NCBI GenBank assembly: GCA_041653675.1
Contig: JBAZEY010000001.1
Span: forward strand, 98 to 64,097
From: Patescibacteria group bacterium
GTDB lineage: Bacteria > Patescibacteriota > Patescibacteriia > XYB2-FULL-38-15
Direction of reading: 5' to 3'
Length of the DNA: 64,000 nt
Positions 23,718 to 49,562 of this stretch are shown here, piece after piece. The position numbers and the translations under genes were made by a program. A model generated the notes under the pieces. That model saw only the letters and a program-made list of their open reading frames with translations. It had not been told where the DNA came from and ran no database searches. Every line of letters begins with the position of its first letter. Within the stretch, counting starts at the first letter, position 1.

Positions 23718-23768
23718 GCCACCATTGAGTTGGTGGCGGGCGGCCGTCGGAGTTTCCGGCGGTTTTTG
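23718..23768. terminator. Convergent terminator region: hairpin gccacc-attgagt-tggtggc, then hairpin ccgucgg-aguuu-ccggcgg + T-run
   Basis: The second hairpin, the 24-mer ccgtcggagtttccggcggttttt at 23744-23767, is repeated exactly at 24437-24460. Confidence 0.6.
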
Positions 23769-23778
23769 TTTTCGGGTG

Positions 23779-24060
23779 TTAGTCCTCCACGATGTCAGGC
23801 ATCAGAAGACATGGGTAATGGCCAGGATAGCGTCGGATTTTCCCCCAGCCGGCATTGAGATGAACCGTCACCTCAGAGAAATCATTCTTAACCACGGTAG
23901 CTTTTGCGGTCATGTTGATCAGGCCGCCAAACCAGCAGAAAAGCACAACAGTCACTTGTTGGCCGATAAGTGCCGTACTCAGGGTGGTGATGTGGTCGCA
24001 GCTTTCCTCCCTTCGGTCAGCCAGAATTTTCTCCATTTGGGCTCTCTTTTTGGGCGTCAT
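23779..24060 (-). CDS. Small protein of unknown function, paralog B (93 aa), GC-rich, C-terminus YPCLLMPDIVED
   Basis: ATG at 24060 is preceded by AAAAGGAGG-acag. The protein shares about 30% identity with the adjacent paralog, including M.KIL at the N-terminus, AKATV, and C.LMP..VED at the C-terminus. GC is about 55% versus about 38% in the flanks. Confidence 0.6.
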   Translation of the reverse strand: MTPKKRAQMEKILADRREESCDHITTLSTALIGQQVTVVLFCWFGGLINMTAKATVVKNDFSEVTVHLNAGWGKIRRYPGHYPCLLMPDIVED

Positions 24061-24080
24061 CTGTCCTCCTTTTCGAGCCG

Positions 24081-24371
24081 TCAATCCTCCACAGTCGGCA
24101 TCAGGAAGCATGGGCAATCCAGAGCAAAGCGGCGCGGGTTCGCGGGTTCCTTGAAGAGGCGAAGTAGGATGCCGTCCTCGGGCCGAGACAAGTCGCGCTC
24201 GATTACCGTGGCTTGGGCTGCCTTGAAACGGCGCGGATCCCACCAGGGCGTGGTAATGGCGATAGTCACAAGTCCACCAGGAGGAACAACTCCGAGATCG
24301 GTCAGCCAGTCGCCCTCTTCCATGTGTCTTGTGAGGAGGACGTTCATTTCGTCTTTCAGAATTTTGATCAT
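24081..24371 (-). CDS. Small protein of unknown function, paralog A (96 aa), C-terminus CPCFLMPTVED
   Basis: ATG at 24371 is preceded by AAGGAGG-ggttg. The 97-aa ORF-track start at 24374 is a TTG one codon upstream. Tandem with paralog B; GC-rich. Confidence 0.6.
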   Translation of the reverse strand: MIKILKDEMNVLLTRHMEEGDWLTDLGVVPPGGLVTIAITTPWWDPRRFKAAQATVIERDLSRPEDGILLRLFKEPANPRRFALDCPCFLMPTVED

Positions 24372-24398
24372 CAACCCCTCCTTGTTTGGTGACCTATT

Positions 24399-24427
24399 AT
24401 TTAATCATTGATTTCGTTTTTTGTCAA
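24399..24427 (-). promoter_or_regulatory. Candidate sigma70-type promoter for the two small paralogs (-35 TTGACA, 17-nt spacer, -10 TTAAAT)
   Basis: Minus-strand ttgacaaaaaacgaaatcaatgattaaat, about 25 nt upstream of the SD. Confidence 0.4.
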
Positions 24428-24436
24428 TAAGAAAAA

Positions 24437-24460
24437 CCGTCGGAGTTTCCGGCGGTTTTT
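24437..24460. terminator. Bidirectional terminator hairpin (ccgtcggagtttccggcggttttt); exact second copy of the 24-mer at 23744
   Basis: A-run before and T-run after. It terminates the minus-strand membrane-protein gene ending at 24471 and bounds the GC-rich islet. Confidence 0.6.
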
Positions 24461-24470
24461 TTAATTTTAT

Positions 24471-26603
24471 CTAAAATTGATATTTAAAAATCCAAATTTT
24501 TCCGTTGCCAATTTCCATAACTTCGTCGGCGGTTGGCTTGGCGGTTTCAAGAATTTTATCGGAGTCGGTCCAGTATTTATTTAAGACAAAATAGACAAGT
24601 TTTACGCCAGTTAAGTTTGCCGCTTCTTTGACCGTGGCCCGCGACGGCGTTTGATAAACCATTTTTAAATAATATTGATAAAGCGGATCGCCGGTTGGGA
24701 TTGGATAATAAAAATATGGCCCAAAATATTTGTTAAATCCGAATTCTTTTATTGCCGCGGCGGAAACGCTTTGATTTGCCAAGACAACATAATCCGCACC
24801 GGCGGCGTCGGCATCAATCGCATGGACAGTGTTTAAATCAAAAAGAGAAACAGAATAGCCGCGGTCAATTTGATAATCTTCGCCGTCGTCTTTAGGATAA
24901 GAATAATAAAGAGAAAAAGTCAGAAAAGCGGCAAAAATTAAAATGAAAAATAATTTTAGTCCGCGGCTCTTGCCCCCCATTAATTTTTCAAAGAATTTAA
25001 AAAGAGCGAAAAGAAAGAGGGGAATCAGAAAATAAAAACTGATTTCTAGAATGCGGCTAGGATAAACTCCTTGTTCATATTTGATGAGTGAAGGAAAATC
25101 AACAAAAAGTTTTAACAAAATATAATTGGTAATCAGGGCGAAGAAAGCGGTCGGGTACACTAAAATTGAGGGTAGATTTTTTTTCAATAAAAAATAACCG
25201 GAGAAGCCGACGATTAAAAGAAGAAAAGAAATATTTTGTCCGTAGACGTAGGCCAAGTCGTAGAGCGGCCTGAAATGATTTACCCAAAGGGGCAGAGACC
25301 AGCCGAGAGCTCCCCAAAAATTTCCCGCAGCTTCGATGGTTTTTAGAGAAAAAATTGAAGCTGGTCCTTCAAAAAACAAGAATGCTGCCAGAAAAACTAA
25401 AGGAATGGCCACGGCAGCAAGAACCACGCTCATAATAAAAACAACATGACGGACGAATTCAAAAATGCCCTGCTGTTTTTTGAAAAAAGTAAAAACGGTG
25501 AGAAGAAGGAGAAAAACGAGAGCGGGAATGCCGGCTAGAGGATGAATTAAAAGCGCGGTAAAGCCCAAAAACCAAAGAGCGGTCAGGGGAAGTTCGCGGC
25601 GTAGGGCGAGAATGCCAAAAAAAACAATAATAAGGAGGAAGAAGTTGGCGAGCCCTTGCGGCGTCGTGACGATGAAAGCCGTGAAGGGTAAAAGAAAAAC
25701 AAGAAGAGCAGCGAGGCTCGCGCCGGGAGTTTTGTTTCTGTCGGTATAAGAGTGAATAGAAAAATAAATTGTAGCTGGAAGAATTGTAGAAATCAAAGTC
25801 GGTAAAAGCAGGCGGTCTACCCAAATAACCGAAGTGTGGAAAATTTTTGCCAAAAAAACGACAAGTGAATATTGGCCGAGATAATAAAAAGGTTTTGGCA
25901 AAATAAAACCTTGGGCTAAAATAATTTTTTCCGTGGCTTGGTGGATAAAAGGATCAAAGCCATAACCGATGCGGTAAACAAAAAGCGCGAGGGCTACCGT
26001 TAAAAATGTGTGCACGGAAATTAAAATCAGGTTTAACCCCTCTTTTTGGCTTTTCAAAACAAAATAAAGCAGGGCCAAAGTTGCCGTAAAATAGTTTATG
26101 AAAAAATCAAAAGGCAGAATTTTCCAGGGAGTACGGATGGCTTCAACTGTCCCGGCAGCCAAGAGATGGCGGATGTTCAAGATCGTTAAAAAAATAAACG
26201 CCGCCAAAAGGAGCGTCGTGCGTAAAATATGAGGATTGATTTGGAGGGGGTTAAAATGTTTTTCCGATTCAGGATGATTGCCAAAACGTAAAAAGGGGAG
26301 CAGGGCGATTGGCGGCAGAAGTACGAGTGAGGCGAGCGCTAAAGTATTTAATTTATAAAAAAAGTAAATCAAGGCGCCAAAAAGAGAAATTCCAGCCAAA
26401 AGAAAAAGAAATCCGTAGAGAAATTTGAAAAGATCTGGCCGGCCACGGAAGAGAATGGAACCCAGTAAAAATCCGTAAAAAATCAAGTACGCCGGGCCGA
26501 AAGTTAGGCCTAAAAGCGGGCTTTCCCAAAGGAAAAAATTGCCGAGCAAGCCGACTATTAAAATCAAAGAAATGATGATACAATAAGGTAATCTGAGGGT
26601 CAT
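24471..26603 (-). CDS. Large polytopic membrane protein (about 14 TM helices plus a C-terminal soluble domain); putative GT-C-type glycosyltransferase (YfhO/ArnT/PMT-like)
   Basis: Hydrophobicity pattern across the first ~480 aa, location in the glycosylation gene cluster. Family assignment is tentative. Confidence 0.5.
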   Translation of the reverse strand: MTLRLPYCIIISLILIVGLLGNFFLWESPLLGLTFGPAYLIFYGFLLGSILFRGRPDLFKFLYGFLFLLAGISLFGALIYFFYKLNTLALASLVLLPPIALLPFLRFGNHPESEKHFNPLQINPHILRTTLLLAAFIFLTILNIRHLLAAGTVEAIRTPWKILPFDFFINYFTATLALLYFVLKSQKEGLNLILISVHTFLTVALALFVYRIGYGFDPFIHQATEKIILAQGFILPKPFYYLGQYSLVVFLAKIFHTSVIWVDRLLLPTLISTILPATIYFSIHSYTDRNKTPGASLAALLVFLLPFTAFIVTTPQGLANFFLLIIVFFGILALRRELPLTALWFLGFTALLIHPLAGIPALVFLLLLTVFTFFKKQQGIFEFVRHVVFIMSVVLAAVAIPLVFLAAFLFFEGPASIFSLKTIEAAGNFWGALGWSLPLWVNHFRPLYDLAYVYGQNISFLLLIVGFSGYFLLKKNLPSILVYPTAFFALITNYILLKLFVDFPSLIKYEQGVYPSRILEISFYFLIPLFLFALFKFFEKLMGGKSRGLKLFFILIFAAFLTFSLYYSYPKDDGEDYQIDRGYSVSLFDLNTVHAIDADAAGADYVVLANQSVSAAAIKEFGFNKYFGPYFYYPIPTGDPLYQYYLKMVYQTPSRATVKEAANLTGVKLVYFVLNKYWTDSDKILETAKPTADEVMEIGNGKIWIFKYQF

Positions 26604-26612
26604 AATTGATAT

Positions 26613-28241
26613 ATGTATTCTATCACAAAATGGATAAAGGAAAATAGGGCTTTGGCGGCGTTGATTTTTTTGGGCGCTATTTTTTTCTTTATTTATTCTT
26701 GGTTTTATTTGGGGACCGCGGCCAAGACGGAGAAATTTAATTCTCCGGACGAGGCGGCTAATTATTTTTTCATAAAAAATTACGTCGCGGAGGGAACGCT
26801 TAAAGTTTTTGAACCGTTGAATCTTTCAACTGGAGGAATAGTTCATCCGCGAAGTATTACGACAATGGGCGGATATCTCGTGCCCGGGAGTTTTTTAGGA
26901 TTGATTTTGATTTATGGATGGCTCGCGAAGATTTTTACACTGGGCGTAATTTGGTGGCTCACCCCGCTTTTCGCCCTTACGGCAGTTTTGTCTCTCTATG
27001 GAATTATAAAAAATATTTTTGACAGGAGAATCGCTCTTTGGTCCGCGTTTCTGCTTTTAATCCATCCGGCTTTTTGGTATTACGCGAGTCGCGGATTTTT
27101 CCCGAATATTTTATTTGTCTCGCTCTTGCTCGCGGGATTTTATTTTTTGGTTGGGCGCGGAAAGCCAAAAACAGCGACCTTGAGTTATCTTAATTTTGTT
27201 TTTGCTGGTTTATTTTTTGGTTTAGCCTTAACTGTTCGGCTGTCAGAAATAATTTGGGTCGGCGCGGCGCTCTTTTTATTATTTTTAATTTATAGAAAAA
27301 ATTTAAAATGGCCTGAAGTGATTGTCTTTTTACTTCCCGCGGGGCTGGCTTTCATTCCAATTATTTTTTACAATCAGACAATCTATGGCGAGCCGCTCAC
27401 AACAGCTTATAATTTAGGAGAGGGGAGCGCGGCGATTTCTGGAGTGGGGTGGCTTACGTCGGCCGCGAAATTTATTTTTCCTTTTGGCCTCCAGGTTAAA
27501 AATGTTTTGAAAAATTTCTCCACGTATTTTGCCGGAATGTTTTGGTGGTTTGCCCTTCCCGCAGCTTTTGGCGCGGTAGTTTTTATCAGAAGATTAATCG
27601 CCGGAAAGTTAGATAAAAAAATTATAACATACTTGTCTCTTGGCGGACTTATTTCTTTATTTTTATTTTTATATTATGGCAGCTGGTTTTTCTACGATAA
27701 CCCGGCTAAAGAAGCATCAATTGGCACTTCTTATGTACGCTATTGGCTACCGATTTATATTTTGTCATTGCCGCTAGTCGCGTTTACTCTCATAAAGTTA
27801 GTCGATTTTATCCGTCCCTTAAAACAAAAAATTTTTGCCGCCGTACTTTGTTTAATTTTCATTCTTTTCGGCGTGAGACTTACTTTTTTGGATAAAAACG
27901 ACGGCTTGGCATATGTTTATAAAAATGTGCACGACTATGCCGCAATCGCCGCAACAATAAATTCACTCATTCCGTCTGATGCAGTAATCATTGTTGATCG
28001 CGCCGACAAAATATTTTTTCCCGAACATCGGGTAATTGTGCCTCTTCGCGAAGTGAGCACTTACGCCGCGATCCCCGAACTTATGAAAAGTTTGCCGGTT
28101 TATTATTATGGCCTGCCCCTCACCGAGAAAGAAATGAATTATCTTTATGACGGCAGAATCAGTCGCGAAGAAATAGAAATAATTGAAATAAAAAATTTTG
28201 GTGCGGAAACACTTTATAAATTTACTGAAGCCCAAAAATAG
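26613..28241 (+). CDS. GT-C fold glycosyltransferase (GT39/ArnT/PMT-like polyprenyl-phosphate-sugar-dependent transferase)
   Basis: N-terminal TM helix then SPDEAANYFF (the DE motif in the first periplasmic loop typical of GT-C), followed by about 11 TM helices. Confidence 0.55.
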   Translation: MYSITKWIKENRALAALIFLGAIFFFIYSWFYLGTAAKTEKFNSPDEAANYFFIKNYVAEGTLKVFEPLNLSTGGIVHPRSITTMGGYLVPGSFLGLILIYGWLAKIFTLGVIWWLTPLFALTAVLSLYGIIKNIFDRRIALWSAFLLLIHPAFWYYASRGFFPNILFVSLLLAGFYFLVGRGKPKTATLSYLNFVFAGLFFGLALTVRLSEIIWVGAALFLLFLIYRKNLKWPEVIVFLLPAGLAFIPIIFYNQTIYGEPLTTAYNLGEGSAAISGVGWLTSAAKFIFPFGLQVKNVLKNFSTYFAGMFWWFALPAAFGAVVFIRRLIAGKLDKKIITYLSLGGLISLFLFLYYGSWFFYDNPAKEASIGTSYVRYWLPIYILSLPLVAFTLIKLVDFIRPLKQKIFAAVLCLIFILFGVRLTFLDKNDGLAYVYKNVHDYAAIAATINSLIPSDAVIIVDRADKIFFPEHRVIVPLREVSTYAAIPELMKSLPVYYYGLPLTEKEMNYLYDGRISREEIEIIEIKNFGAETLYKFTEAQK

Positions 28242-28243
28242 CA

Positions 28244-28846: not shown

Positions 28847-28849
28847 TTT

Positions 28850-29050
28850 ATGAAAGCCAAAGATTTTTTTTACAAAACATTTAGAGACTTGTTTGGCGTT
28901 TCTTTTGCCGCCCTTGTATTTTTTTCTCTTTTGGAATGGTTCCAACCCGGCTTTGTGAGTTTTTATATTAGTTTTAATTTACTCTTGATGATTCCGTTTA
29001 TATCTGGTATTCTGACAATACTATTGGATAAACAAAAAATTAAAGAATAA
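28850..29050 (+). CDS. Small hydrophobic membrane protein (66 aa)
   Basis: Two predicted TM helices; starts 4 bp after the upstream stop. Confidence 0.35.
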   Translation: MKAKDFFYKTFRDLFGVSFAALVFFSLLEWFQPGFVSFYISFNLLLMIPFISGILTILLDKQKIKE

Positions 29051-29054
29051 AAAT

Positions 29055-29462: not shown

Positions 29463-30007
29463 AAAAATGGGAAAAATTAAGTGAAGAAATTTTGCACAAA
29501 AATCCGTGGTGGACATACAGGCACGAAAAATATGTATTACCAAACGGCAAAGAAGGAAATTATTATTACATGCACACAAATGGTGGCGCATTAGTGATTC
29601 CGGTTTTAGATGATGGGCGGATTGTTATGGTTAGACAGCGGCATTATCTTTTCAAACGAGAAAGCATAGAGTTTCCCAGGGGTGGAGTGAAAGAAAACCA
29701 ATCTTATGAAGAGGCGGCGCGCGCCGAATTTGAGGAAGAAGCCGGTTACAAGGTCGGCGAACTACGTTTGATTGGGGAGATAGCTCCAAATATTGGGTTA
29801 GATGATGAGATAATGAAAATATTTTTGGCGAAAAAATTGGAGAAGACAAAGAGCCATCCTGACGAGACTGAGGAAATTGAAATTTTATTTAAGACGCCGG
29901 AAGAAATCGATAAAATGGTAGAAACAAATGAAATTTGGGACGGCCAAGTTTTGGCGGCATGGGCCTTGGCAAGAAAATATTTTATAAAGGGCAAAGCCCT
30001 GTGTTGA
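29459..30007 (+). CDS. NUDIX hydrolase (ADP-ribose pyrophosphatase-like)
   Basis: Nudix box GGVKENQSYEEAARAEFEEEAGY; ATGA overlap with the HIT gene. Confidence 0.75.
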   Translation: MKKWEKLSEEILHKNPWWTYRHEKYVLPNGKEGNYYYMHTNGGALVIPVLDDGRIVMVRQRHYLFKRESIEFPRGGVKENQSYEEAARAEFEEEAGYKVGELRLIGEIAPNIGLDDEIMKIFLAKKLEKTKSHPDETEEIEILFKTPEEIDKMVETNEIWDGQVLAAWALARKYFIKGKALC

Positions 30008-30068
30008 CTGCGCTCGTTCGGAAATGAAAATAAAATTTTCGTTTCTCTCACTCGCTTGTCAATAAAAA
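30002..30068. repeat. ~65-bp hairpin-forming intergenic repeat, copy R1
   Basis: tgttgactgcgctcgttcggaaatgaaaataaaattttcgtttctctcactcgcttgtcaataaa. Homologous copies lie at 49756-49819 and 58842-58908. The core stem is gaaatgaaaa/ttttcatttc. Confidence 0.65.
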
Positions 30069-30076
30069 ATAAAAAT

Positions 30077-31090
30077 ATGAATTTATTAGTTTGTGGCGGA
30101 GCGGGGTTTATCGGTTCAAACTTTGTCCGGCAAATGTTAAAAAAATATCCGGATTACAAAATCGTAAATTACGATAAGCTGACTTACGCCGGCAATTTGG
30201 ATAATCTGCTCGACGTGGAAAAAAATCCAAACTACACTTTTGTCCGGGGTGATATTTGTGATTTAGAAAAGTTAAACCAAGTTATTGCCGAGCATAAAAT
30301 TAGCCATGTAATTAATTTTGCGGCGGAAACGCACGTTGACCGCTCCATCCACGGCGGCTGTAAAGATTTTGTTATGACTAATACTTTGGGTGTGCAGATG
30401 ATTTTGGACGCCGTGCGGGCCAATAGTATAGAAAAGTTTGTGAATGTTTCAACTGACGAAGTTTACGGCGCTCTTGGGCTTGATGAGGATAGAAAATTTA
30501 CGGAAATCACGCCAATCTGGCCCAATATGCCTTATGCCGCGGCCAAAGCCGGAGGAGATTTAATGTGCAATGCTTATTTTGTCACTCATAAAGTTCCGGT
30601 CGTGGTTACACATTGTTCTAATAATTATGGCCCGTATCAATTCCCCGAAAAAATAATTCCGTATTTTATTTTCCGACTGTTCGGCGGACAAAAAGTTCCG
30701 GTTTACGGCGATGGCTTGTATGTCCGCGACTGGATCCACGTGACCGATCACGCGGCCGCTCTTGATTTACTGCTTCATAAAGGCGTCGTGGGTGAGGTTT
30801 ATAATATCGGCGTTGATAATGAACGCAGTAATATGGAGATTACCAAGATGATGTTAAAAATTATGGGCAAGGGGGAAGAAATGATTGAACACGTGACTGA
30901 CCGGCCGGGACACGATCGCCGTTATGCGATTGATGCGTCAAAAATTTTGGCGTTAGGATGGAACCCGGAATATGGCCGCGATAAATTTGAACAAGGTTTG
31001 CGCGAGACTGTGGAATGGTATTTGGCAAATAAAGAATGGGTGGAAAAATTACAAAAAAGAAAAGAAGAATTAAATCCACACATTAAATAA
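30077..31090 (+). CDS. rfbB: dTDP-glucose 4,6-dehydratase
   Basis: MNLLVCGGAGFIGSNF Rossmann, YAAAKAGGD (YxxxK), YTFVRGDICD. The ORF-track start at 30056 is a TTG inside repeat R1; ATG 30077 is preferred. Confidence 0.8.
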   Translation: MNLLVCGGAGFIGSNFVRQMLKKYPDYKIVNYDKLTYAGNLDNLLDVEKNPNYTFVRGDICDLEKLNQVIAEHKISHVINFAAETHVDRSIHGGCKDFVMTNTLGVQMILDAVRANSIEKFVNVSTDEVYGALGLDEDRKFTEITPIWPNMPYAAAKAGGDLMCNAYFVTHKVPVVVTHCSNNYGPYQFPEKIIPYFIFRLFGGQKVPVYGDGLYVRDWIHVTDHAAALDLLLHKGVVGEVYNIGVDNERSNMEITKMMLKIMGKGEEMIEHVTDRPGHDRRYAIDASKILALGWNPEYGRDKFEQGLRETVEWYLANKEWVEKLQKRKEELNPHIK

Positions 31091-31529: not shown

Positions 31530-31748
31530 ATGGAAAATAGTTTTTTTTCCGGAGAAAACATAAAGAGCCTGGGAAGCCTAGAGGAGGAAAGAAAAATGAG
31601 AGAACGCGTGCAGAGTTTGGAAGGGATGATTAGAAAAGGCGGAGAGCAAGGCGAGAAGGCTAAAAAGGCATTACTTAGAGAATTCGGTCCTAAGGCTCTG
31701 GGGTTAGTTGTAGAATTACAAAGAGAAATAAAAAAGAATAAAAAATAG
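31530..31748 (+). CDS. Small charged hypothetical protein (72 aa)
   Basis: ORF with host-like AT composition, Lys/Glu-rich; followed by the terminator at 31764. Confidence 0.3.
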   Translation: MENSFFSGENIKSLGSLEEERKMRERVQSLEGMIRKGGEQGEKAKKALLREFGPKALGLVVELQREIKKNKK

Positions 31749-31790: not shown

Positions 31791-31873
31791 AGTATTGACA
31801 TTTTGGTTTTTATATCTTAACCTTATCAATATCAAAGAGGAGCCAAAGGGGCTTCAAGAAAGGAAAGAAGAAG

Positions 31874-32446
31874 ATGGCAGTGATCACGTTGGAGGGGGCC
31901 GTGCGCAGGCTGGACGGCGCATTCGTTTACCTCGAACCAGAGGAGGTGGCGGCGAGAAAACTCTCCGAGGGCAAAGGGGTCGAGCTCTGGTACTTCGATC
32001 CGGCGACCGGACGAATCGCTCGTGGCGATGGCAAGTTCTTCGACATCCGCATGGTGGACCGCGGCGGGTGGGGGCAGATCGTGCTCTACGAGGAGCCGAA
32101 CGTGCCGCAGTCGGCGGATCCCACTATGCCGCGCATCGTGGGCCACGTCGTGATCGAGACGACCCGCAGGTACGGCGCACTGCTCGTACGCGTGCACAAG
32201 GCCACGGGCCTGAACGGCGGGATTCTGGAGCTCAAGCCGTCCAGCATCTCCAAGGGCGAACTGGCCGAGAGAGGTCTCGAGCCTGTCGGCTATTTCGAGG
32301 CCAGTCCCCAGCGCATCATGGGCATGATCGCCGTCTACCTCATGGAGACGGACTTCCCGGAAGAGGAAGGCAGGACTGTGCTCCAGTTCTTCAAGCACTC
32401 CACCGACGGGCGGTCGCTCGCGGCCCTGGCCAAGGCCGGCCTGTAG
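31874..32446 (+). CDS. Hypothetical protein (190 aa) in GC-rich islet 2
   Basis: About 62% GC coding sequence with high-GC third positions. The overlapping 296-aa frame-1 ORF and the 213-aa antisense ORF are Arg-rich artefacts. AGGAAAG precedes the ATG by 9 nt. Confidence 0.5.
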   Translation: MAVITLEGAVRRLDGAFVYLEPEEVAARKLSEGKGVELWYFDPATGRIARGDGKFFDIRMVDRGGWGQIVLYEEPNVPQSADPTMPRIVGHVVIETTRRYGALLVRVHKATGLNGGILELKPSSISKGELAERGLEPVGYFEASPQRIMGMIAVYLMETDFPEEEGRTVLQFFKHSTDGRSLAALAKAGL

Positions 32447-32466
32447 TCGGCTACGGGAGGAATATC

Positions 32467-32685
32467 GTGGCAAGGTTGCACAAGCCCAAGAAGAAGCGCA
32501 GCAAGCTGGAGAGGATCCGGCACGAGAAGTTCGAGATCGCCAAGATCATCTATCGTGCGGAGGCGGGCCGCACTTGTCCCGAGGAGAAGATGAACAAGTT
32601 TCTCGCCCGCTGGCACGCTCTCTGCAACGAGGAGTTGCGCGCCATGGTCGAGGCGTCGAAGGTGCGCAAGGCCGCCGCGGCCTGA
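32467..32685 (+). CDS. Small basic protein (72 aa), GTG start
   Basis: GGGAGG-aatatc-GTG (strong SD, 6-nt spacer). Product VARLHKPKKKRSKLERIRHEKFEIAKIIYRAEAGRTCPEEKMNKFLARWHALCNEELRAMVEASKVRKAAAA. GC-rich. Confidence 0.5.
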   Translation: MARLHKPKKKRSKLERIRHEKFEIAKIIYRAEAGRTCPEEKMNKFLARWHALCNEELRAMVEASKVRKAAAA

Positions 32686-32725
32686 TCTAGACAAGAACAA
32701 GGAGGACAGAAACACACACCGTTTT

Positions 32726-32782
32726 TTGCAGCATCTGCTGCCGAAAGCGGTGTTTTTTTATACACTTTGTGCTATTATAAAA
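32726..32782 (+). terminator. Compound terminator (acacaccgtttttt - inner hairpin gcagcatctgctgc - cggtgttttttt), followed by an extended -10-like TGcTATTAT
   Basis: Outer stem acaccg/cggtgt with T-run. The same acaccgtttt...cggtgtttttt arrangement recurs at 33218-33262. Confidence 0.5.
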
Positions 32783-32824
32783 ATTGGGGAAAAGCCAGCG
32801 CATTGGCTGGTGAAGGAGGAGAAG

Positions 32825-33211
32825 ATGGAAGAACAAGGAGTGACTAAGCATGTTCCCGATCGAGCAGTCGTGAGTCTCGTAAATCGGATCCTTCTGCGGG
32901 CGATTGAGCTCAAGGCGGATGAGATCTACGTCGGACCCGACGAAGAAGGAATCGCGGCCAGCGAATTTGCTATTAGCTATTTGGTCAACGGCAAACTGTA
33001 TTCGCGGGAGGCGATGATGAGGTCGACGTGTGTGAATATCATCGCCCACTTCAAAGAGCTGGGCAGGCTCAATCACGCGAAACGGGACACGCGGCAGGAG
33101 GGTGATTTCCTGACGAAGGGCGAGGGTCGGGAATGGATTTTCCGTATCACTGTCGAACCGGCACCGCCGTTCGGTGAGAAGGTGATCGCCAAGCTCGTTC
33201 GGCGTTCCTAG
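32825..33211 (+). CDS. N-terminal (N2) domain fragment of a PilB/GspE/PilT-class secretion ATPase, stand-alone or truncated; no Walker A/ATPase core
   Basis: VVSLVNRILLRAIELKADEIYVGPDEE...ISYLVNGKLYSRE...REWIFRITVEPAPPFGEKVIAKLV matches the start of the T2SSE ATPase family (vklvn.il..Ai...ASDIHiEp...vRyRiDG.L...dlRVstlPt.yGEkvVlRlL). SD AAGGAGGA lies 5 nt before ATG 32825. The ORF stops about 15 residues before where Walker A would be. Confidence 0.55.
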   Translation: MEEQGVTKHVPDRAVVSLVNRILLRAIELKADEIYVGPDEEGIAASEFAISYLVNGKLYSREAMMRSTCVNIIAHFKELGRLNHAKRDTRQEGDFLTKGEGREWIFRITVEPAPPFGEKVIAKLVRRS

Positions 33212-33217: not shown

Positions 33218-33262
33218 ACACCGTTTTGGCAACTGAACATTGCCGGGACGGTGTTTTTTATT
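33218..33262 (+). terminator. Rho-independent terminator (acaccgt ... acggtgt + T6)
   Basis: 7-bp stem with a 23-nt loop and T-run; marks the 3' boundary of GC-rich islet 2. Confidence 0.55.
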
Positions 33263-39053: not shown

Positions 39054-39323
39054 TTAAGCAAAAGTGTTTTGGTAGTGAGCGGCGGTTTTAGCGCTCGCCT
39101 GAATTGTGCGAGTACAATCTGGTTCATGCGCCCCGCATTTGGCGCAAAGATACCAATCACAAGACCGGCAGGTAGAGGAAAACCTCCCATCGATTGGTTC
39201 GCCGCAATTCCAACAATGGGTGATTTCCCATTCGCTGCCGCAAGCGGAACAGGACATGGTGTTCCGAAGCAGCCCCTCGCCGCGAAGGGCTCTCTCGCCG
39301 CAATAGCACAGATCTTGATCCAT
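39054..39323 (-). CDS. Small Cys-rich protein (89 aa; CxC + 4 CxxC pairs), putative multi-zinc-ribbon protein
   Basis: MDQDLCYCGERALRGEGLLRNTMSCSACGSEWEITHCWNCGEPIDGRFSSTCRSCDWYLCAKCGAHEPDC. GC about 52% versus about 38% background. ORF-track start 39347 is a GTG; ATG 39323 is preferred. Confidence 0.4.
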   Translation of the reverse strand: MDQDLCYCGERALRGEGLLRNTMSCSACGSEWEITHCWNCGEPIDGRFSSTCRSCDWYLCAKCGAHEPDCTRTIQASAKTAAHYQNTFA

Positions 39324-39432
39324 ATGTTTAATCTTTAAATTTCCCACCTTCTATTATATGTTTTTTTTATTACGAAAAGATGAAGATGGCTATTTTTTTC
39401 TTTTTAAGTTTTTTGTTATAATATACTGATAT

Positions 39433-43655: not shown

Positions 43656-43667
43656 ATTAATAATTTT

Positions 43668-43892: not shown

Positions 43893-43898
43893 ATATTT

Positions 43899-45098
43899 AT
43901 GAAGCGAATATATTTTGATCACTCGGCTACTACCCCAGTTGATCCGCAGGTTTTGCGGGCAATGTTGCCGTATTTAAAAAACGATTTCGGTAATGCTTCT
44001 TCGCTTCATTTCCTTGGCCAAAGGGCGAGGGCGGGAGTTGAAAAAGCGCGAGAACAAGTGGCAAAATTTTTGGTCTGTGAGCCAAAAGAAATTATTTTTA
44101 CTTCCGGTGCGACGGAGAGCAATAATCTGGCGCTCATTGGTTTTGTTCGCCGGGCGAGAGCGCTTGATCCAAAAAGAAAAGTTCACGTTATCACTTCCGC
44201 GATTGAACATCCGGCAATTCTTGAAGTTTGCCGTGAATTAAAAAAAGAAGAAGTTGATGTCACGTTTTTACCGGTGAGCCACGCAGGACTTGTCAGAGTG
44301 GAGGATGTAAAAAAGGCAATTCGGCCCGAGACGATTTTGATTTCCATAATGTATGTTAACAATGAGGTCGGTACGGTTCAGCCAATCCAGAAAATTGGTA
44401 AGTTTATCCGGGAGACGAATCTTAGTCGGGAAAAACAAAACAAAATTTATTTTCATACCGACGCGGTTCAGGCGGCAAATTTTTGTGATTGTCGGGTTGA
44501 TTTTTTGGGAGTTGATATGTTATCTCTTTCGGCGCATAAAATTTACGGGCCGAAAGGAACAGGCATACTTTTTGTGCGAGAAGGCACGCCGCTTTTCCCG
44601 ATTATTTTTGGCGGTCATCAGGAATGGGGGGTCCGCTCCGGAACGGAAAATGTTGCGGGAATTGTTGGGCTTGGCAAGGCAGTGGAATTATTAAATCAAA
44701 AATCAAAATTAAAAAGTCAGAATTTAAAAATTAAAAAATTGCGCGATAAGTTAGTGCGAGAAATATCAAAAAAAATTCCCGATGCCATTTTGAATGGGGA
44801 CTTAGAGCATCGCGTTCCGGGGAATCTTAATTTTTGTTTTAAAAATGTAGAAGGTGAAAGTATTTTATTGATGCTTGATATGGAGGGCATTGCTCTTTCC
44901 ACCGGATCGGCTTGTTCTTCCGGATCGCTTGAGCCGTCGCATGTTTTAACTGCGATGGGTGTATCCCCAATAATTTCTCATGGAAGTGTGCGCATCACTT
45001 TAGGAAAAAACAATACCGAAGAAGAAGTACGCCGTTTGGTTAAAATATTGCCGGGCATCGTGGCGAGACTGCGCAAGATGTCTCCGATTAAAAAATAG
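43899..45098 (+). CDS. Cysteine desulfurase (IscS/NifS class V aminotransferase)
   Basis: PLP-lysine motif SLSAHKIYGPKGTGILFV; active-site Cys region STGSACSSGS. Confidence 0.85.
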   Translation: MKRIYFDHSATTPVDPQVLRAMLPYLKNDFGNASSLHFLGQRARAGVEKAREQVAKFLVCEPKEIIFTSGATESNNLALIGFVRRARALDPKRKVHVITSAIEHPAILEVCRELKKEEVDVTFLPVSHAGLVRVEDVKKAIRPETILISIMYVNNEVGTVQPIQKIGKFIRETNLSREKQNKIYFHTDAVQAANFCDCRVDFLGVDMLSLSAHKIYGPKGTGILFVREGTPLFPIIFGGHQEWGVRSGTENVAGIVGLGKAVELLNQKSKLKSQNLKIKKLRDKLVREISKKIPDAILNGDLEHRVPGNLNFCFKNVEGESILLMLDMEGIALSTGSACSSGSLEPSHVLTAMGVSPIISHGSVRITLGKNNTEEEVRRLVKILPGIVARLRKMSPIKK

Positions 45099-45110
45099 TT
45101 AGAATTTAAG

Positions 45111-45503
45111 ATGATTTTTTTTACCGCCATTAAAAATTTTTTCAAACTTTTTACTGCCCTGATTTTTAAAGATGGGTTTTTTAGATTTTTATTTATTTTT
45201 TCTTTAATTGTAAATTTGCTTATCTGGTTTTTTATTTATTGGAAATTTTATCCTCTGCACGCGACAGCAGAAGTTTTTCCCCTGCATTACAATATTTATT
45301 TTGGAGTTGATTTTATTGGGAAGTGGTACGAAATTTTTATTATGCCACTTGTCGGATTTTTCTTCGTCATTATTAATTTTATTTTAGCGGATATAATTTA
45401 TTTAAGAGACAAAATTACCAGCTATTTTTTAACGGGGGCGGGCGCTTTTATTCAAGTCCTGCTTTTTTTAGCCGCGTACTCGATTATTATGATTAATCAG
45501 TAA
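45111..45503 (+). CDS. Hypothetical integral membrane protein (130 aa, 4 TM)
   Basis: Hydrophobic ORF directly upstream of mraY. Confidence 0.4.
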   Translation: MIFFTAIKNFFKLFTALIFKDGFFRFLFIFSLIVNLLIWFFIYWKFYPLHATAEVFPLHYNIYFGVDFIGKWYEIFIMPLVGFFFVIINFILADIIYLRDKITSYFLTGAGAFIQVLLFLAAYSIIMINQ

Positions 45504-45507
45504 AATT

Positions 45508-46557
45508 ATGGATAATTTTTCAATAATTAAAATTTTTATTTTAACAACTATCTCGTTTGTCATTGCTATGGCCTGGACGCCGGCCCTGACTCATTTTCTA
45601 TTTAAATATAAATTAGGAAAACAAATTAGGGACGAAAAGTCTGCACCCATAATGTCTTCGCTCCACAAAGCAAAATCTGGCACACCAACGATGGGTGGAG
45701 TTTTAATTTGGGTCACAGTTTTATTTATAGCATTGATGGTTTTTTATCTTGGGGAGTGGACTGGCTTGGAATTTTTGAAGAAATTTAATTTTTTGACGAG
45801 ATCGCAAACTCTTTTGCCGCTAGGCGCGCTCGTTGCTTCGGCAATAGTTGGTTTAGTTGACGATTATTTAAACGCGCGGAGAATCGGGCCGAACGGCGGG
45901 GGATTTAGAATGCGCCACAGACTTCTGATGTATACCCTAATCGCGGCAGTGGGTGCGTGGTGGTTTTATTTTAAACTTGATTGGCACACTATTCACGTGC
46001 CATTTTTAGGAATTTTTGATATAGGATGGTGGTATCTGCCAATTTTTATTTTTATAATTGTTGCGACGTCTTTTTCGGTAAACGAAAGCGACGGTCTGGA
46101 CGGTTTGGCTGGAGGATTGCTCTTGGCCGCTTTCGCCGCATATGGCGCGATTGCTTTTTCTCAGGGGAAAATGGAGTTAGCGGCTTTTTGCGGGGTAATA
46201 GATGGCGCATTATTAGCCTTTCTTTGGTTTAACATCAACCCCGCTAGATTTTTTATGGGTGACACGGGCGCGATGTCGCTTGGCGTGACGCTCGGGATTG
46301 TGGCAATGCTTACAAATTCTGTTTTACTTTTGCCGATTATTGGATTTTTGTTTGCGGTGGAATCGGTTTCCGTGATTATCCAAATTATTTCAAAAAAAAT
46401 AAGAGGGAAAAAGGTTTTTCTTTCGACCCCCATTCACCATCATCTTGAGGCCATTGGTTGGTCAGAACCAAAAATTGTAATGCGTTTTTGGGTGATTGCT
46501 GGAGTAGCCGCGGTTGTGGGTTTTATTATTTCACTCATGGATGTTAGCTTGAGATAA
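45508..46557 (+). CDS. mraY: Phospho-N-acetylmuramoyl-pentapeptide transferase
   Basis: KSGTPTMGGVLI, NESDGLDGLAGG and FMGDTGAMSLG motifs. Confidence 0.9.
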   Translation: MDNFSIIKIFILTTISFVIAMAWTPALTHFLFKYKLGKQIRDEKSAPIMSSLHKAKSGTPTMGGVLIWVTVLFIALMVFYLGEWTGLEFLKKFNFLTRSQTLLPLGALVASAIVGLVDDYLNARRIGPNGGGFRMRHRLLMYTLIAAVGAWWFYFKLDWHTIHVPFLGIFDIGWWYLPIFIFIIVATSFSVNESDGLDGLAGGLLLAAFAAYGAIAFSQGKMELAAFCGVIDGALLAFLWFNINPARFFMGDTGAMSLGVTLGIVAMLTNSVLLLPIIGFLFAVESVSVIIQIISKKIRGKKVFLSTPIHHHLEAIGWSEPKIVMRFWVIAGVAAVVGFIISLMDVSLR

Positions 46558-46581
46558 AATAAATTTGCGTTTTCGTAAATT

Positions 46582-47679
46582 ATGAAAAAACCGGATTATG
46601 TTTTTATTGGAATCATCGGCGCGCTTTTAGTTTTTGGCTTGATGATCCTTTCTTCAGCAACTTCGCCGGTAGCTTATGAAAAATTCGGTGATAATTATTG
46701 GTATTTAAAACACCAAATTTTTTTTGGTTTATTGCCAGGGCTTCTCGCGTTTTTTTTAATGTCGCGTTTGGATTATAGAAAATGGAAAAAATACGCGTTG
46801 CCGTTTTTGGTTATTTCCATCGTGCTCCTGCTTTTGGTTTTTATTCCAGGACTCGGGGCTGGTTATGGAAAAGCTAGAAGCTGGATAAATGTTTTTGGAA
46901 TGTCGCTCCAGCCGTCAGAAATAGTTAAAATAACTTTTTTAATTTATCTTGCCGCCTGGCTTGGTCCGAAACGGGGCGGGCGAGATATGCAAGAGGTGGG
47001 TGCGAGCTTTATTCCCTTTGCGATAGTTTTTGGAATTATTGCTCTCTTGATGGTTTTACAACCAGATATTGGGACGCTTTCTATTATCGCGATAATTTCA
47101 GTAATTGTTTATTTTTCTGCGGGAGCGCCGCTTTCACATCTCGGATGGATTTCCGGAGCCGGAGTGTTTTTGTTTTTTCTTTTGGTAAAATTTGCTCCTT
47201 ATCGAACGGCGCGGTTGATGACTTTTTTGCATCCAGAACTTGACCCGCAGGGAGTTGGCTACCATATCAACCAGGCGCTTTTGGCGATCGGCTCGGGCGG
47301 ATTTTTTGGATTGGGTCTCGGTCTTTCACGGCAAAAATTTCAATATTTGCCCGAAGTCGCTGGCGATTCAATTTTTGCTGTCATGGCGGAAGAGCTGGGT
47401 TTTATTTTTATGATTTTATTTATCGCGGCGTTGGTGGGCTTAGCAATCCGCGGATTTAAAATCGCCAAAAATGCTCCGGACGGTTTTGGCCGCTTGCTCG
47501 CCGTTGGCATCACGAGCTGGTTTGTTCTGCAGTCATTTATAAATATTGGAGCCATGATTGGGATTTTGCCTTTGACTGGAATTCCTTTGCCTTTTGTAAG
47601 TTACGGTGGCACGGCTCTTACGGTTTGTCTTGCCGCGGCGGGAATAATGGCAAACATTTCAAAATATTCTAGAGAATAA
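46582..47679 (+). CDS. ftsW: SEDS-family peptidoglycan glycosyltransferase (FtsW/RodA)
   Basis: 10-TM protein with SEDS motifs (IQPSEIVKITFLIYLA; PLPFVSYGGTALT); between mraY and murG. Confidence 0.8.
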   Translation: MKKPDYVFIGIIGALLVFGLMILSSATSPVAYEKFGDNYWYLKHQIFFGLLPGLLAFFLMSRLDYRKWKKYALPFLVISIVLLLLVFIPGLGAGYGKARSWINVFGMSLQPSEIVKITFLIYLAAWLGPKRGGRDMQEVGASFIPFAIVFGIIALLMVLQPDIGTLSIIAIISVIVYFSAGAPLSHLGWISGAGVFLFFLLVKFAPYRTARLMTFLHPELDPQGVGYHINQALLAIGSGGFFGLGLGLSRQKFQYLPEVAGDSIFAVMAEELGFIFMILFIAALVGLAIRGFKIAKNAPDGFGRLLAVGITSWFVLQSFINIGAMIGILPLTGIPLPFVSYGGTALTVCLAAAGIMANISKYSRE

Positions 47680-47683
47680 TTTT

Positions 47684-48754
47684 ATGAAAATAATCTTGAC
47701 GGGCGGAGGGACAATGGGATCGGTGACGCCGCTACTGGCCGTGGCCGAGGAATTAAAAAAACGCGAATCTGGCGCGGAGTTTTTGTGGATTGGGACAAAA
47801 AATGGTCCGGAGAAAAAAATGGTCGAATTATCTAGCATTAAATTTATGAGCGTGCCGGCAGGGAAGCTACGCCGATATTTTTCCGGTTGGAATTTTTTAA
47901 TGCCATTTGTACTCGCGGCAGGATTTTTTAAATCGCTCTGGCTGATTTTTAGATTCAAACCGCAGATGATTTTGTCGGCCGGGGGATTTGTCGCCGTGCC
48001 CGTGATTTGGGCGGGATGGATTTTACGCGTGCCAAGTTTGGTTCATCAGGAAGATTTGCGGCCGGGTTTGGCGAATAAACTTACGGCGCGATTTGCAAAA
48101 ATTATTACAGTAACATTTCTAGAATCTTTAAAATATTTCCCCCGCGCCATTGTGACGGGAAATCCGGTGCGTGCGGAAATTTTTTCCGGGAACAAAGATC
48201 GCGCCGCAGAAATTTTTAATTTAGAAAAAAATCTTCCGGTAATTTTAATCTTAGGAGGAGGGACGGGTGCGCTTGGATTAAATAAAATTGTTGTGGCTGC
48301 CGCGCTTCGTCTCACTGAATTTTGTCAAGTTATTCATATGACCGGAGGAAGAGTTGATGCGTCGCTGAAATCGGAGATCGAAACAATAAAAAGAGAAACG
48401 CCGTATTACCATTCAGTAGAATTTTTAATGGAAGATTATTCCAATACCCTTGCCGCGGCGGATCTTGTTATTTCCCGCGCCGGCATGGGGACGCTTACGG
48501 AGCTCGCGTTGCTCGGCAAATCGACGGTTTTAATTCCGATTTCTGGCAGTCACCAAGAAGACAATGCTTATTATTTTAAAAAACAAAACGCTGTTGTTTT
48601 TTGGGATGAAAAAAATTTGACGCCAGAAAACTTTTCTTCGGCGATTGGTGAGTTATTGAATAATAAAGTGGAATTAGAGAATTTAGGCAGAAATATTAAA
48701 GAGATAATGTCTGCCGATGCGGCACAAAGGATCGCTGACGAAATTTTGAGATAA
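47684..48754 (+). CDS. murG: UDP-N-acetylglucosamine--N-acetylmuramyl-(pentapeptide) pyrophosphoryl-undecaprenol GlcNAc transferase
   Basis: MKIILTGGGTMGSVTPLLAVAEEL; GT28 N- and C-domains. Confidence 0.85.
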   Translation: MKIILTGGGTMGSVTPLLAVAEELKKRESGAEFLWIGTKNGPEKKMVELSSIKFMSVPAGKLRRYFSGWNFLMPFVLAAGFFKSLWLIFRFKPQMILSAGGFVAVPVIWAGWILRVPSLVHQEDLRPGLANKLTARFAKIITVTFLESLKYFPRAIVTGNPVRAEIFSGNKDRAAEIFNLEKNLPVILILGGGTGALGLNKIVVAAALRLTEFCQVIHMTGGRVDASLKSEIETIKRETPYYHSVEFLMEDYSNTLAAADLVISRAGMGTLTELALLGKSTVLIPISGSHQEDNAYYFKKQNAVVFWDEKNLTPENFSSAIGELLNNKVELENLGRNIKEIMSADAAQRIADEILR

Positions 48755-48760
48755 AAAAAA

Positions 48761-48810
48761 CAAGGACAGAATTTTTTAAACCCTTCCTCCTCGGGAGGGT
48801 TTTCTGTCCT
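48761..48810. terminator. Bidirectional nested-hairpin terminator (aaggacagaa ... cctcc tcg ggagg ... ttctgtcctt)
   Basis: 10-bp outer stem enclosing a GC inner hairpin, between convergent murG and the GGDEF gene. Confidence 0.6.
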
Positions 48811-48819
48811 TGATGCGTA

Positions 48820-49467
48820 CTATCGCTTGTCGGCGACCACACAGTTGCGTCCCGCGCATTTGGCCTCGTAAAGCGCCCTGTCGGCCTCTTCGAGTCCTTC
48901 TTTGGTTTTTGCCTCAGTCACGCCGAGACTGATCGTCACCGAGAAAGTCGATTTGCCGAAGGAAAAGGGCACTGCCGCCACAGCCTTGCGGAGCCGTTCG
49001 GCGACCAAAGCCGCGTTCTCTGGAGTTGCTCCCCGGAGAATGATGACGAATTCGTCCCCACCCATTCGTCCGATCACGTCATACGGGCGAAGAGCTGTGC
49101 GGAAACGTCTGATGATCTCCTTTAGGATCTCATCTCCGGCCGGGTGTCCGTATGTGTCGTTGATTCCCTTGAAGATGTCGACGTCAATTGCGATCACGCT
49201 AAGTGGTGAAGTGAAGCGTTTGGAGAAAGCGAGCTCATTTACAACTGCTAACTCGACTCCGGCGCGATTCAGCGCACCGGTCAAGGGATCGACCCTAGCC
49301 AATTCTTGCAGTTCGTCATTCTTGGCGGTGAGCCTCACAATTTCTGCCCCGAGAGCCCTGATCCGCGTTTCGCTGTCTGCCCGCTCCTCGTAGGCCGCCG
49401 CGAGCGCGATCCGTAGTTGTCGCACGGGAAGATCTCGCACCTTCTTGGAAACCCGCCTTTTTGCCAT
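48820..49467 (-). CDS. Stand-alone GGDEF-domain diguanylate cyclase with N-terminal coiled-coil segment
   Basis: RMGGDEFVIIL active-site motif with conserved upstream DxD (AIDVDIFKGINDTYGHPAGDEIL). GC about 57%. Strong SD GAAGGAGG-tttc-ATG. Confidence 0.75.
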   Translation of the reverse strand: MAKRRVSKKVRDLPVRQLRIALAAAYEERADSETRIRALGAEIVRLTAKNDELQELARVDPLTGALNRAGVELAVVNELAFSKRFTSPLSVIAIDVDIFKGINDTYGHPAGDEILKEIIRRFRTALRPYDVIGRMGGDEFVIILRGATPENAALVAERLRKAVAAVPFSFGKSTFSVTISLGVTEAKTKEGLEEADRALYEAKCAGRNCVVADKR

Positions 49468-49562
49468 GGAAACCTCCTTCTGTGATCCGGAGAGTTGTTA
49501 TCTATCGCGACCTTAGATTTTATGTTAAAACGTCAATTTTGTCAAGACTGAAAAATATAACA

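Follow-up and report, generated by a model that had tools for sequence, protein, structure and literature searches.

Shine-Dalgarno-led, GC-rich gene cassettes among genes lacking Shine-Dalgarno sequences in a segment of a Patescibacterial genome

Three GC-rich islets and their genes

The window analyzed here is a 64,000-nucleotide stretch of the genome of a Patescibacteria group bacterium (contig JBAZEY010000001.1, assembly GCA_041653675.1). The subject is a set of six small genes that, in composition and in their signals for translation initiation, stand apart from the host genes around them. The background GC content of the window is about 0.40, and its peaks, 0.47 at 23501-24500, 0.59 at 32001-33000, and 0.51 at 48501-49500, coincide with three islets, which by GC content extend over 23.7-24.4 kb, 31.8-33.2 kb, and 48.8-49.5 kb. 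After curation of the open reading frames (ORFs), the islets contain six small genes, designated I1a and I1b (islet 1), I2a, I2b, and I2c (islet 2), and I3 (islet 3). The starts named for I1a, I1b, I2a, I2b, I2c, and I3 in the original prediction, which was made from the sequence letters (24371, 24060, 31874, 32467, 32825, and 49467), are genuine ORF starts, and the products have 96, 93, 190, 72, 128, and 215 residues, respectively. The genes around the islets are ordinary housekeeping genes, as assigned by the Pfam families of the called genes, and include glycosyltransferases, rmlB/fdtA/rmlD/rmlA-type dTDP-sugar genes, murA, rplI, pyrG, rpmA, nifU/iscS, mraY, ftsW, murG, and murD.

The organism is a Falkowbacteria-like Patescibacterium, and NCBI lists the exact islet proteins under 'Patescibacteria group bacterium' (locus tags WC348_). 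The relatives compared were OZ246416.1, a closed 886-kb chromosome (loci L004, L008, and L012); a Candidatus Falkowbacteria metagenome-assembled genome (MAG; L013), which is the nearest named relative; JBGSRW01; several metagenome contigs; and one Uhrbacteria genome. A locus search with a 17-sequence alignment yielded three loci each from genome and metagenome collections, and an exact look-up of RmlD matched no record. The OZ246416.1 record is titled 'uncultured Gammaproteobacteria bacterium'. This label looks wrong, because the gene order and the proteins match the Patescibacterial window.

The layout of islet 1 is as follows, where SD denotes a Shine-Dalgarno sequence and GC3 the GC content at third codon positions.

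23718..23767, unstranded: left border of islet 1, with the minus-strand terminator hairpin of I1b (23737->23718) and a plus-strand terminator hairpin (23742-23764)
23744-23767, unstranded: left copy of a 24-nt direct repeat, within the plus-strand terminator hairpin; the two copies are 100% identical
23779..24060, minus strand: I1b, 93 aa, GC 0.51, a paralogue of I1a (31% identity)
24065..24071, minus strand: I1b SD, AAGGAGG, 4 nt before the ATG; -11.6 kcal/mol
24081..24371, minus strand: I1a, 96 aa, GC 0.57, GC3 0.65, of no recognisable family; conserved C-terminal CPCFLMPxVED
24375..24383, minus strand: I1a SD, AAGGAGGGG, its GGAGG 5 nt from the ATG; the sequence is shared by three genomes
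24384..24427, minus strand: promoter and 5' leader of islet 1, with the -35 element TTGACA at 24427-24422
24437..24460, unstranded: right copy of the 24-nt direct repeat, a terminator hairpin that also ends a 710-aa host gene; in relatives, another hairpin takes this place

Comparisons with family, PHROG, and PADLOC collections assign no recognisable family to I1a, I1b, or I2b, and the AlphaFold model of I1a (pLDDT, the predicted local distance difference test score, 60.6) is too unreliable for a fold search. Next to islet 1 lies a 31%-GC AAA_33-type kinase gene (23220-23708) that is absent from L004, L013, L023, and L024. By this comparison, the kinase gene is an insertion specific to this lineage, with a composition that deviates in the opposite direction.

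Islet 2 lies inside the dTDP-sugar gene cluster and contains three genes, as follows.

31795..31873, plus strand: promoter and 5' leader of islet 2, with the -35 element TTGACA at 31795-31800 and a weak purine-rich SD, AAGGAAAG, at 31860-31867
31874..32446, plus strand: I2a, 190 aa, GC 0.65, GC3 0.85
32456..32460, plus strand: I2b SD, GGAGG, 6 nt before the GTG; orthologues have AGGAGG and ATG
32467..32685, plus strand: I2b, 72 aa, basic, GC 0.62, GTG start
32699..32757, plus strand: orphan AAGGAGG (32699-32705), with no ORF behind the motif, and the first terminator hairpin
32813..32819, plus strand: I2c SD, AAGGAGG, 5 nt before the ATG
32825..33211, plus strand: I2c, 128 aa, GC 0.55
33218..33254, plus strand: second terminator, with the stem ACACCG/CGGTGT as in the first; it matches the single terminator of relatives

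I2a has no Pfam, NCBIfam, or PDB sequence match, and no canonical Nudix box is seen in its sequence. Its AlphaFold model (pLDDT 92.8) has a Nudix-like fold, for which the best PDB match is EvaA, 4j7h (E=2.7e-4, template-modelling score 0.53), followed by Nudix domains. EvaA is a dTDP-sugar 2,3-dehydratase, and the predicted fold suits the place of I2a in a dTDP-sugar cluster. I2c is a stand-alone fragment that corresponds to the N-terminal part of a GspE/PilB-type secretion ATPase, ahead of the ATPase core; only residues 76-190 of the 465-residue GspE model match, far under the curated cut-offs. The I2c unit sits between two terminators of identical stem.

Islet 3 contains a single gene between murG and a tRNA-Lys gene.

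48761..48812, unstranded: bidirectional terminator common to murG (plus strand) and I3 (minus strand)
48820..49467, minus strand: I3, 215 aa, GC 0.57, GC3 0.64, a stand-alone diguanylate cyclase
49473..49479, minus strand: I3 SD, AAGGAGG, 5 nt from the ATG; its AGGAGG does not vary among four loci
49480..49545, minus strand: promoter and leader of islet 3, TTGACA-17-TAAAAT, 11/12 matches (49545->49517), conserved in orthologous loci

The I3 product scores 133.7 bits against PF00990 (cut-off 23.8) and 148 bits against TIGR00254 (cut-off 37.4). With an intact GGDEF motif and RxxD site (RPYD...GGDEF), it is by sequence a member of the diguanylate cyclase family. The 3' end of tRNA-Lys (49819-49893, minus strand) is duplicated as a perfect 26-nt direct repeat at 49600-49625 and 49811-49836, 211 bp apart. 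The duplication encloses only about 190 bp, not I3, and this piece, which L009 lacks, resembles a small insertion with a duplication of the att kind. It also holds a partial copy (49754-49816) of an approximately 86-nt repeat whose other copies, 86% identical, lie at 29994-30079 and 58834-58919, just upstream of an rmlB-like gene and of gene 58917. The repeat has an internal palindrome, ends in TTGTCAATAAA, and may represent a mobile element carrying a promoter, or else a miniature inverted-repeat transposable element. The megahit contigs of the source sample (ERZ27247358) stop at 32653, inside islet 2, and at 49897, just past tRNA-Lys, which may reflect strain variation at these two places.

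Start signals and composition of islet and host genes

Five of the six islet genes have GGAGG at a fixed short distance from the start codon (4 nt in I1b, 5 in I1a, 6 in I2b, 5 in I2c, and 5 in I3). The original prediction had given every islet gene a canonical SD at 4-6 nt, which slightly overstates the case since I2a (31874) has only the weak AAGGAAAG, with a gap of 9 nt between AGGA and the ATG. The strength of an SD was scored as the duplex energy of positions -20 to -4 against ACCUCCUUA. The islet genes score -11.6, -11.9, -5.6, -10.3, -11.7, and -12.4 kcal/mol, whereas the mean of the host genes is -1.34 (n=56), against -1.79 for random 17-mers of the window (Mann-Whitney p=8e-5). The claim that host genes lack an SD thus holds, with the host genes scoring no better than random sequence and the related loci behaving alike. 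A strong SD is found in 5/6 islet genes versus 1/55 host genes of the window (Fisher p=6e-6), the sole host gene at or below -7.5 kcal/mol being 42966, with GGGGGA. Pooling the window with its relatives gives 11/12 islet-type genes versus 8/140 host genes (p=5e-11).

A 50-aa ORF at 31596 with an apparent SD was considered as a host exception and rejected. Orthologues and translation place the true start at 31530, in a host-type context, and the AGGAGG at 31582 is coding sequence (Glu-Glu) within the resulting 72-aa host-type ORF. A suspicion that this ORF is an integrase remnant, raised by a 90% cluster that it has in common with XerD recombinases, was also dropped, as direct comparison gave no real similarity.

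The start signals of the two gene classes differ in other respects as well. A T at -1 precedes 80% of host starts and no islet gene, and the host leader is A/U-rich. The 60 nt around the start fold more stably in islet genes (-9.6 versus -5.5 kcal/mol in host genes, p=0.004). Codon preferences are reversed, with TTC used at 16% in host and 83% in islet genes, ATC at 20% and 80%, AAG at 20% and 66%, and TTA at 29% and 1%. The two populations of translation signals that had been noticed by eye are therefore real and coincide with GC content and codon usage. The further suggestion that host mRNAs are near-leaderless is plausible for a few genes (rplI, 39347, and 61804); a plain tally finds only a slight excess of -10-like hexamers 4-12 nt upstream of the starts.

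Higher GC content alone does not predict an SD. The genes of the first 17.7 kb, mostly of 47-51% GC and mainly encoding large surface proteins, have none. Between 92 and 17674 there are six large genes of this kind (562-1177 aa); a hydrophobic, signal-peptide-like N-terminus is present in 5/6 of their products, and three have matches to Big_1/invasin-type domains. The Cys-rich ORF at 39054-39347, which had been noted as GC-rich and without an obvious SD, does lack one; it belongs to the host-type genes and is conserved, at 85-89% identity, in relatives.

GGAGG occurs 48 times in host coding sequence, versus 69 expected from synonymous shuffles (z=-3.1), the most extreme value among 13 motifs. 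This avoidance fits a functional anti-SD and lends that idea weak support.

Two further features of the window lie apart from the islets. The starts at 15455 and 53427, which belong to unrelated genes, have in common the sequence ttctRctacggggt directly before the ATG (15434-15454 and 53406-53426). The gene at 55294-57258 encodes a 654-aa protein with a zinc-ribbon-like motif at its beginning, and contains, at 55490-55893, 3-4 tandem copies of a 123-nt (41-codon) repeat that are 78-93% identical.

Orthologous loci and the persistence of high GC

Orthologues of I1a, I2a, I2b, and I3 are found in place in up to five related genomes. The closed chromosome OZ246416.1 has a 99-aa I1 orthologue between the glycosyltransferase and the 710-aa membrane protein genes, an I2a orthologue (62% identity) between fdtA and rmlD as in the window, and an I3 orthologue (57% identity, L008) between murG and tRNA-Lys. 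The last arrangement recurs in L009 and L010. I1a orthologues are in place in L004, L013, L023, and L024; the allele of L023 and L024 is 92% identical to I1a in protein, with 86-90% DNA identity of these loci to the window and a single I1 gene. L011, L014, and L015 have I2a in synteny, either alone or together with I2b, and the Falkowbacteria MAG has both I1 and I2a+I2b. In this last locus (L013, ~10440-10640), a frameshift close to the 3' end of I2a carries its reading frame into I2b, through either a sequencing error or decay of the copy. I2b is present in L011 and L013 and has been deleted from L004, L014, and L015, where its last bases are left. I1b is absent from L004, L013, and L023, with no counterpart in any related locus, and I2c was found in no related locus; both are therefore lineage-specific additions.

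In all relatives checked, the orthologues have a GC3 of 0.64-0.86 and an upstream AAGGAGG, GGAGG, or GGAAGGA(A/G) tract, which their neighbors lack. Alignments of the upstream regions display an invariant TTGACA and a leader of roughly 35-50 nt, and a hairpin terminator closes each unit. The SD core, AGGAGG in islet 3 and AAGGAGGG in islet 1, is invariant while the flanking bases vary. In the purine tract upstream of I2a, invariance is confined to the GGA core. The I2a leader also contains a stem-loop (~31838-31856), (A)AGCC-loop-GGCTT(C). Its loop varies, whereas the AGCC/GGCT core is the same in six genomes, and a stem that does not change can show no covariation. The stem-loop may stabilize the mRNA or bind a factor. 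A search of the long 5' untranslated regions for a known leader RNA or riboswitch gave only sub-threshold chance matches in Rfam. The promoter and leader of islet 1 have 83% mean column identity in three genomes whose I1 proteins are only ~40% identical. Finally, the orphan AAGGAGG before the islet 2 terminator recurs in six genomes, including L004, L011, L013, L014, and L015, with no start codon at SD distance.

The islet proteins diverge faster than those of the host. Between the window and its relatives, host proteins are 75-94% identical, I2a and I3 57-62%, and I1 ~40%. The ratio of nonsynonymous to synonymous divergence (dN/dS) is 0.16-0.40 for islet genes and 0.03-0.12 for host genes; the islet genes thus encode real proteins under relaxed constraint. 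The synonymous divergence itself (dS) is that of the neighbors, 0.92 for I3 versus 0.91 for murG, and 0.30 for I1a (dN/dS 0.16) versus 0.36 for the adjoining 710-aa host gene, from which it follows that these genes co-diverged vertically with the host.

The known homologues of I2a are few. A word-based search found 52, of which all those with a taxon name are from Patescibacteria, Falkowbacteria, or Uhrbacteria, and a profile search of 1.84 billion representatives returned 87 clusters only. In the Uhrbacteria genome (51% GC), whose host proteins are 24-55% identical to those of the window, I2a again lies among dTDP-sugar genes and has as its neighbor a Hexose_dehydrat gene that is likewise GC-rich and SD-led. 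The I2a tree is discordant with those of host genes, the allele of the window being nearest to that of L011 (78%), the most distant host. Together with the duplicated hairpins, the I2b deletions, and the I1b and I2c additions, this discordance indicates that the spots keep gaining, losing, and exchanging cassettes.

The original prediction had taken the two populations of signals as evidence of recent horizontal acquisition. For I1b and I2c, which are absent from relatives, this stands; for I1a, I2a, I2b, and I3 it does not, given their syntenic, GC-rich orthologues with an SD or purine tract. As genomic islands, the islets have the atypical composition (GC 0.51-0.65 versus ~0.40, and the reversed codon preferences), and only I1b and I2c are missing from the corresponding locus of relatives. 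No integrase or recombinase gene lies beside any islet. Border repeats consist of the perfect 24-nt repeat around islet 1, the duplicated terminator stems around I2c, and the tRNA-Lys duplication described above. Scans of IMG/VR for I2a, I2c, and I3 and a tblastn search of I2a against GenBank phages were empty; plasmid matches of I2c were of ~30% identity and to full-length GspE only; PHROG gave I3 only generic GGDEF families of unknown function and I2c a single weak match; and there was no PADLOC match to a defence system.

If the genes are old, their GC content calls for an explanation. The GC3 of I2a is uniform, at 0.81-0.86, in seven genomes, while four-fold sites of host genes are ~50% identical between the window and OZ246416.1. 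Under a simple two-state model of neutral decay since the common ancestor, I2a would need an ancestral GC3 above 1, so that in this model no possible starting value leads to the GC3 of 0.85. Translational selection for C-ending codons was considered and set aside, the ribosomal protein genes rplI and rpmA having a GC3 of only 0.34-0.36. From these sequence comparisons we conclude that some force probably maintains the GC content of the cassettes, be it selection acting on the mRNA or a turnover fed by a GC-rich pool.

A proposed second route of initiation, its alternatives, and known systems

We propose, with a probability of about 0.6, that the islets represent an old class of accessory cassettes that rely on SD pairing, in a host whose core genes rely on SD-independent initiation. 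The core genes start without an SD, from A/U-rich or very short leaders that usually end in U at -1. Three intergenic hot spots hold the six small accessory genes as self-contained expression cassettes, in which a sigma-70-type promoter whose TTGACA is perfect is followed by a leader of ~35-50 nt, AAGGAGG 4-6 nt from the start (weak in I2a), a GC-rich coding sequence, and a hairpin terminator. I1a, I2a, I2b, and I3 were already part of the ancestor that several related genomes have in common and have descended vertically, their proteins evolving fast while high GC and the SD were retained; I1b and I2c were added later at the same spots. The GC-rich, more structured start regions would be barred from the SD-independent route of the host, and the cassette mRNAs would instead be recruited to the 30S subunit by SD/anti-SD pairing, which requires CCUCC on the host 16S rRNA. 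Such recruitment would place the cassette SD under purifying selection. The sequences themselves show the signals, their conservation, and the vertical descent; functional SD pairing and selection on GC content are inferred. The cassettes probably entered by ancient lateral transfer, or else from a pool of exchangeable Patescibacterial cassettes; a lateral origin at some past point is plausible. The conserved SDs themselves argue that this lineage keeps a usable anti-SD. No rRNA gene was found in the window, in six related loci, or among the called ORFs of the ~5 kb past the 3' end of the window.

Several points weigh against this proposal. The material compared, the 64-kb window and ~150 kb of related loci, is below whole-genome scale. 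By simple arithmetic, the GC3 of I3 and I1a can be reached by slow neutral decay from an ancestral value of ~0.75-0.9. Among polarized synonymous changes in I2a, GC->AT changes are 2-4x as frequent as AT->GC, below the ~7-fold excess of free decay and above what equilibrium would give, so some erosion is under way. A distant I2a homologue in another SD-less genome (L016, 44% identity) is AT-rich and apparently leaderless; it follows that the I2a protein itself needs no high GC. The discordant I2a tree implies some lateral exchange. The depletion of GGAGG concerns one among 13 motifs tested. Lastly, among bacteria of the Candidate Phyla Radiation (CPR), the anti-SD motif (CCTCCT) was detected in only 48% of Parcubacteria (PMC9297842).

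The alternative that survives best, which we consider possible and on balance unlikely, is a circulating pool of GC-rich, SD-using Patescibacterial mobile genes that are repeatedly delivered or swapped at terminator-hairpin hot spots, with turnover, and not selection in place, keeping the GC content high. It would account for the variable content of the cassettes (presence or loss of I2b, gain of I2c and I1b, and either one or two genes of the I1 kind), the duplication of terminator hairpins at their borders, the discordance of I2a, and the conservation of the islet 1 promoter beyond that of its proteins. A Y1 transposase gene (IS200/IS605 or RAYT-type, PF01797) is present at 3777-4310 and belongs to a class that acts on hairpins; it has 33% GC and a host-type start, and may bear on the duplicated hairpins. 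Set against the pool are the match in dS between I3 or I1a and host neighbors, as expected of vertical descent, the empty searches for viral, phage, or plasmid relatives, and the lack of a recombinase beside any islet, the XerD link of the neighboring ORF having proved spurious.

It is tempting to go further than the preferred proposal and to see the SD as a dedicated regulatory channel in this clade. Core genes would be translated without it, whereas translation of a small conserved set of GC-rich cassettes, among them a c-di-GMP synthase and a protein related to sugar nucleotides, would depend on an accessible 16S anti-SD, e.g., in a particular ribosome state, in parallel to the bS21-controlled translation of rpsU in Flavobacteria. 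High GC and structured leaders would then be selected to keep cassette mRNAs off the default route. We regard this extension as speculative and rather doubtful.

The view of the original prediction, that all three islets are recent, unameliorated imports from a GC-rich, SD-using donor whose SDs are leftovers, now appears improbable. The atypical GC content, codon usage, and SDs suit it, as do the absence of I1b and I2c from relatives, the perfect direct repeat around islet 1, the tRNA-Lys gene adjoining islet 3, and the breaks of source-sample contigs at islet 2 and beside the tRNA near islet 3. Yet four of the six genes are syntenic, GC-rich, and led by an SD or purine tract where host dS is ~0.9-1.3, and I2a recurs in another order-level lineage. 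The dS of I3 and I1a equals that of neighboring host genes. The named I2a homologues and the closest I3 ones are Patescibacterial, and no named non-Patescibacterial homologue above 48% identity was found; nor is there an integrase nearby or a phage or plasmid relative among those searched. For I1a, I2a, I2b, and I3, recent import is, on the evidence of the syntenic orthologues, already refuted.

Less probable still is that AGGAGG binds no ribosome, the 16S rRNA having no anti-SD and the motif being kept for protein or RNA binding, or the genes being barely translated. The low detection rate of the anti-SD in Parcubacteria (PMC9297842) would favor this, and the orphan AAGGAGG before the islet 2 terminator demonstrates that the motif can be conserved with no adjacent start codon. 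In five genes, however, and likewise in their orthologues, the spacing is fixed at 4-6 nt, as is characteristic of SD function; dN/dS below 0.4 indicates that the proteins are made and matter; and GGAGG is avoided in host coding sequence. In the same source, lineages without an anti-SD mostly overlap with Parcubacteria that lack uL1 (PMC9297842), which would count against this alternative for a lineage outside that group.

An assembly or binning artefact, in which GC-rich pieces of another organism were fused into the contig, had been named beforehand as what could undo the pattern, and the contig ends inside islet 2 and beside tRNA-Lys near islet 3 might have suggested it; it is refuted, as ENA and Logan contigs (two megahit contigs and one Logan contig, i.e., three independent contigs from two assemblers) cover every junction at 99.9-100% identity and the arrangement recurs in at least five other genomes, including the closed chromosome.

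SD-poor lineages and the loss of the anti-SD in some CPR bacteria are already known. The split of one CPR genome into an SD-less core and SD-led, GC-rich cassettes was not found described in the papers that searches on SD sequences in CPR bacteria or Patescibacteria returned, judged mainly from titles and abstracts. Should the pattern hold genome-wide, the conserved SDs would be natural reporters of anti-SD function in these ribosomes, and atypical GC combined with foreign-looking translation signals could not be read as recent transfer unless relatives are checked. The puzzle would then be what holds GC3 at ~0.85 for so long in a genome of 40% GC. Gene calling in CPR bacteria would be affected too, because start models trained on SDs fit only the minority class of genes.

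Among known systems, the islets fit neither integrons nor phage morons nor classical recent genomic islands. Integron cassettes are promoterless and defined by IntI/attI and attC hairpins, whereas the islets have their own promoters and no integrase; only the hairpin-bounded layout is alike. Phage morons are independent promoter-gene-terminator units of atypical composition. The islets resemble them in having their own promoter, leader, SD, and terminator between host transcription units, and differ in the lack of a prophage context and of viral relatives in the searches made, and in a position conserved across a family-level clade. Under the amelioration model of Lawrence and Ochman, compositionally atypical genomic islands reportedly ameliorate after horizontal transfer. 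Like such islands, the islets have atypical GC and codons, are intergenic and of variable content, and include one beside a tRNA gene and one with direct repeats. They differ in that 4/6 genes are syntenic in deeply diverged relatives and remain unameliorated, and in that no mobility gene adjoins them.

Closer parallels come from systems of initiation. Tsurumaki et al. (2022) reported that a subgroup of Parcubacteria has lost the anti-SD motif, together with features of rRNA and ribosomal proteins (PMC9297842). Their lineages and ours have in common an unconventional initiation in parts of the CPR, some lineages being believed not to form SD helices, and the gene-level split into an SD-less core and SD-led cassettes is not described in the accessible part of that work (PMC9297842). 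The nearest parallel is with Flavobacterium johnsoniae and other Bacteroidia, in which the anti-SD is present but sequestered by bS21, bS18, and bS6; most of their genes have no SD, and a strong one is retained by rpsU, where it serves autoregulation (PMC7797042, PMC9976891, PMC13000453). The likeness to these SD-poor Bacteroidia lies in the start signals, namely nearly all genes without an SD and a tiny set with a strong, conserved one; rpsU is outside the window. The SD-led genes here are instead GC-rich accessory cassettes (a diguanylate cyclase, a Nudix-like protein, and small proteins), the phylum is Patescibacteria, and the host context is U at -1 in an A/U-rich leader rather than the upstream adenines of Bacteroidia. 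Few, conserved, and strong SDs in an SD-poor lineage would imply, in both cases, a second, SD-dependent route of initiation.

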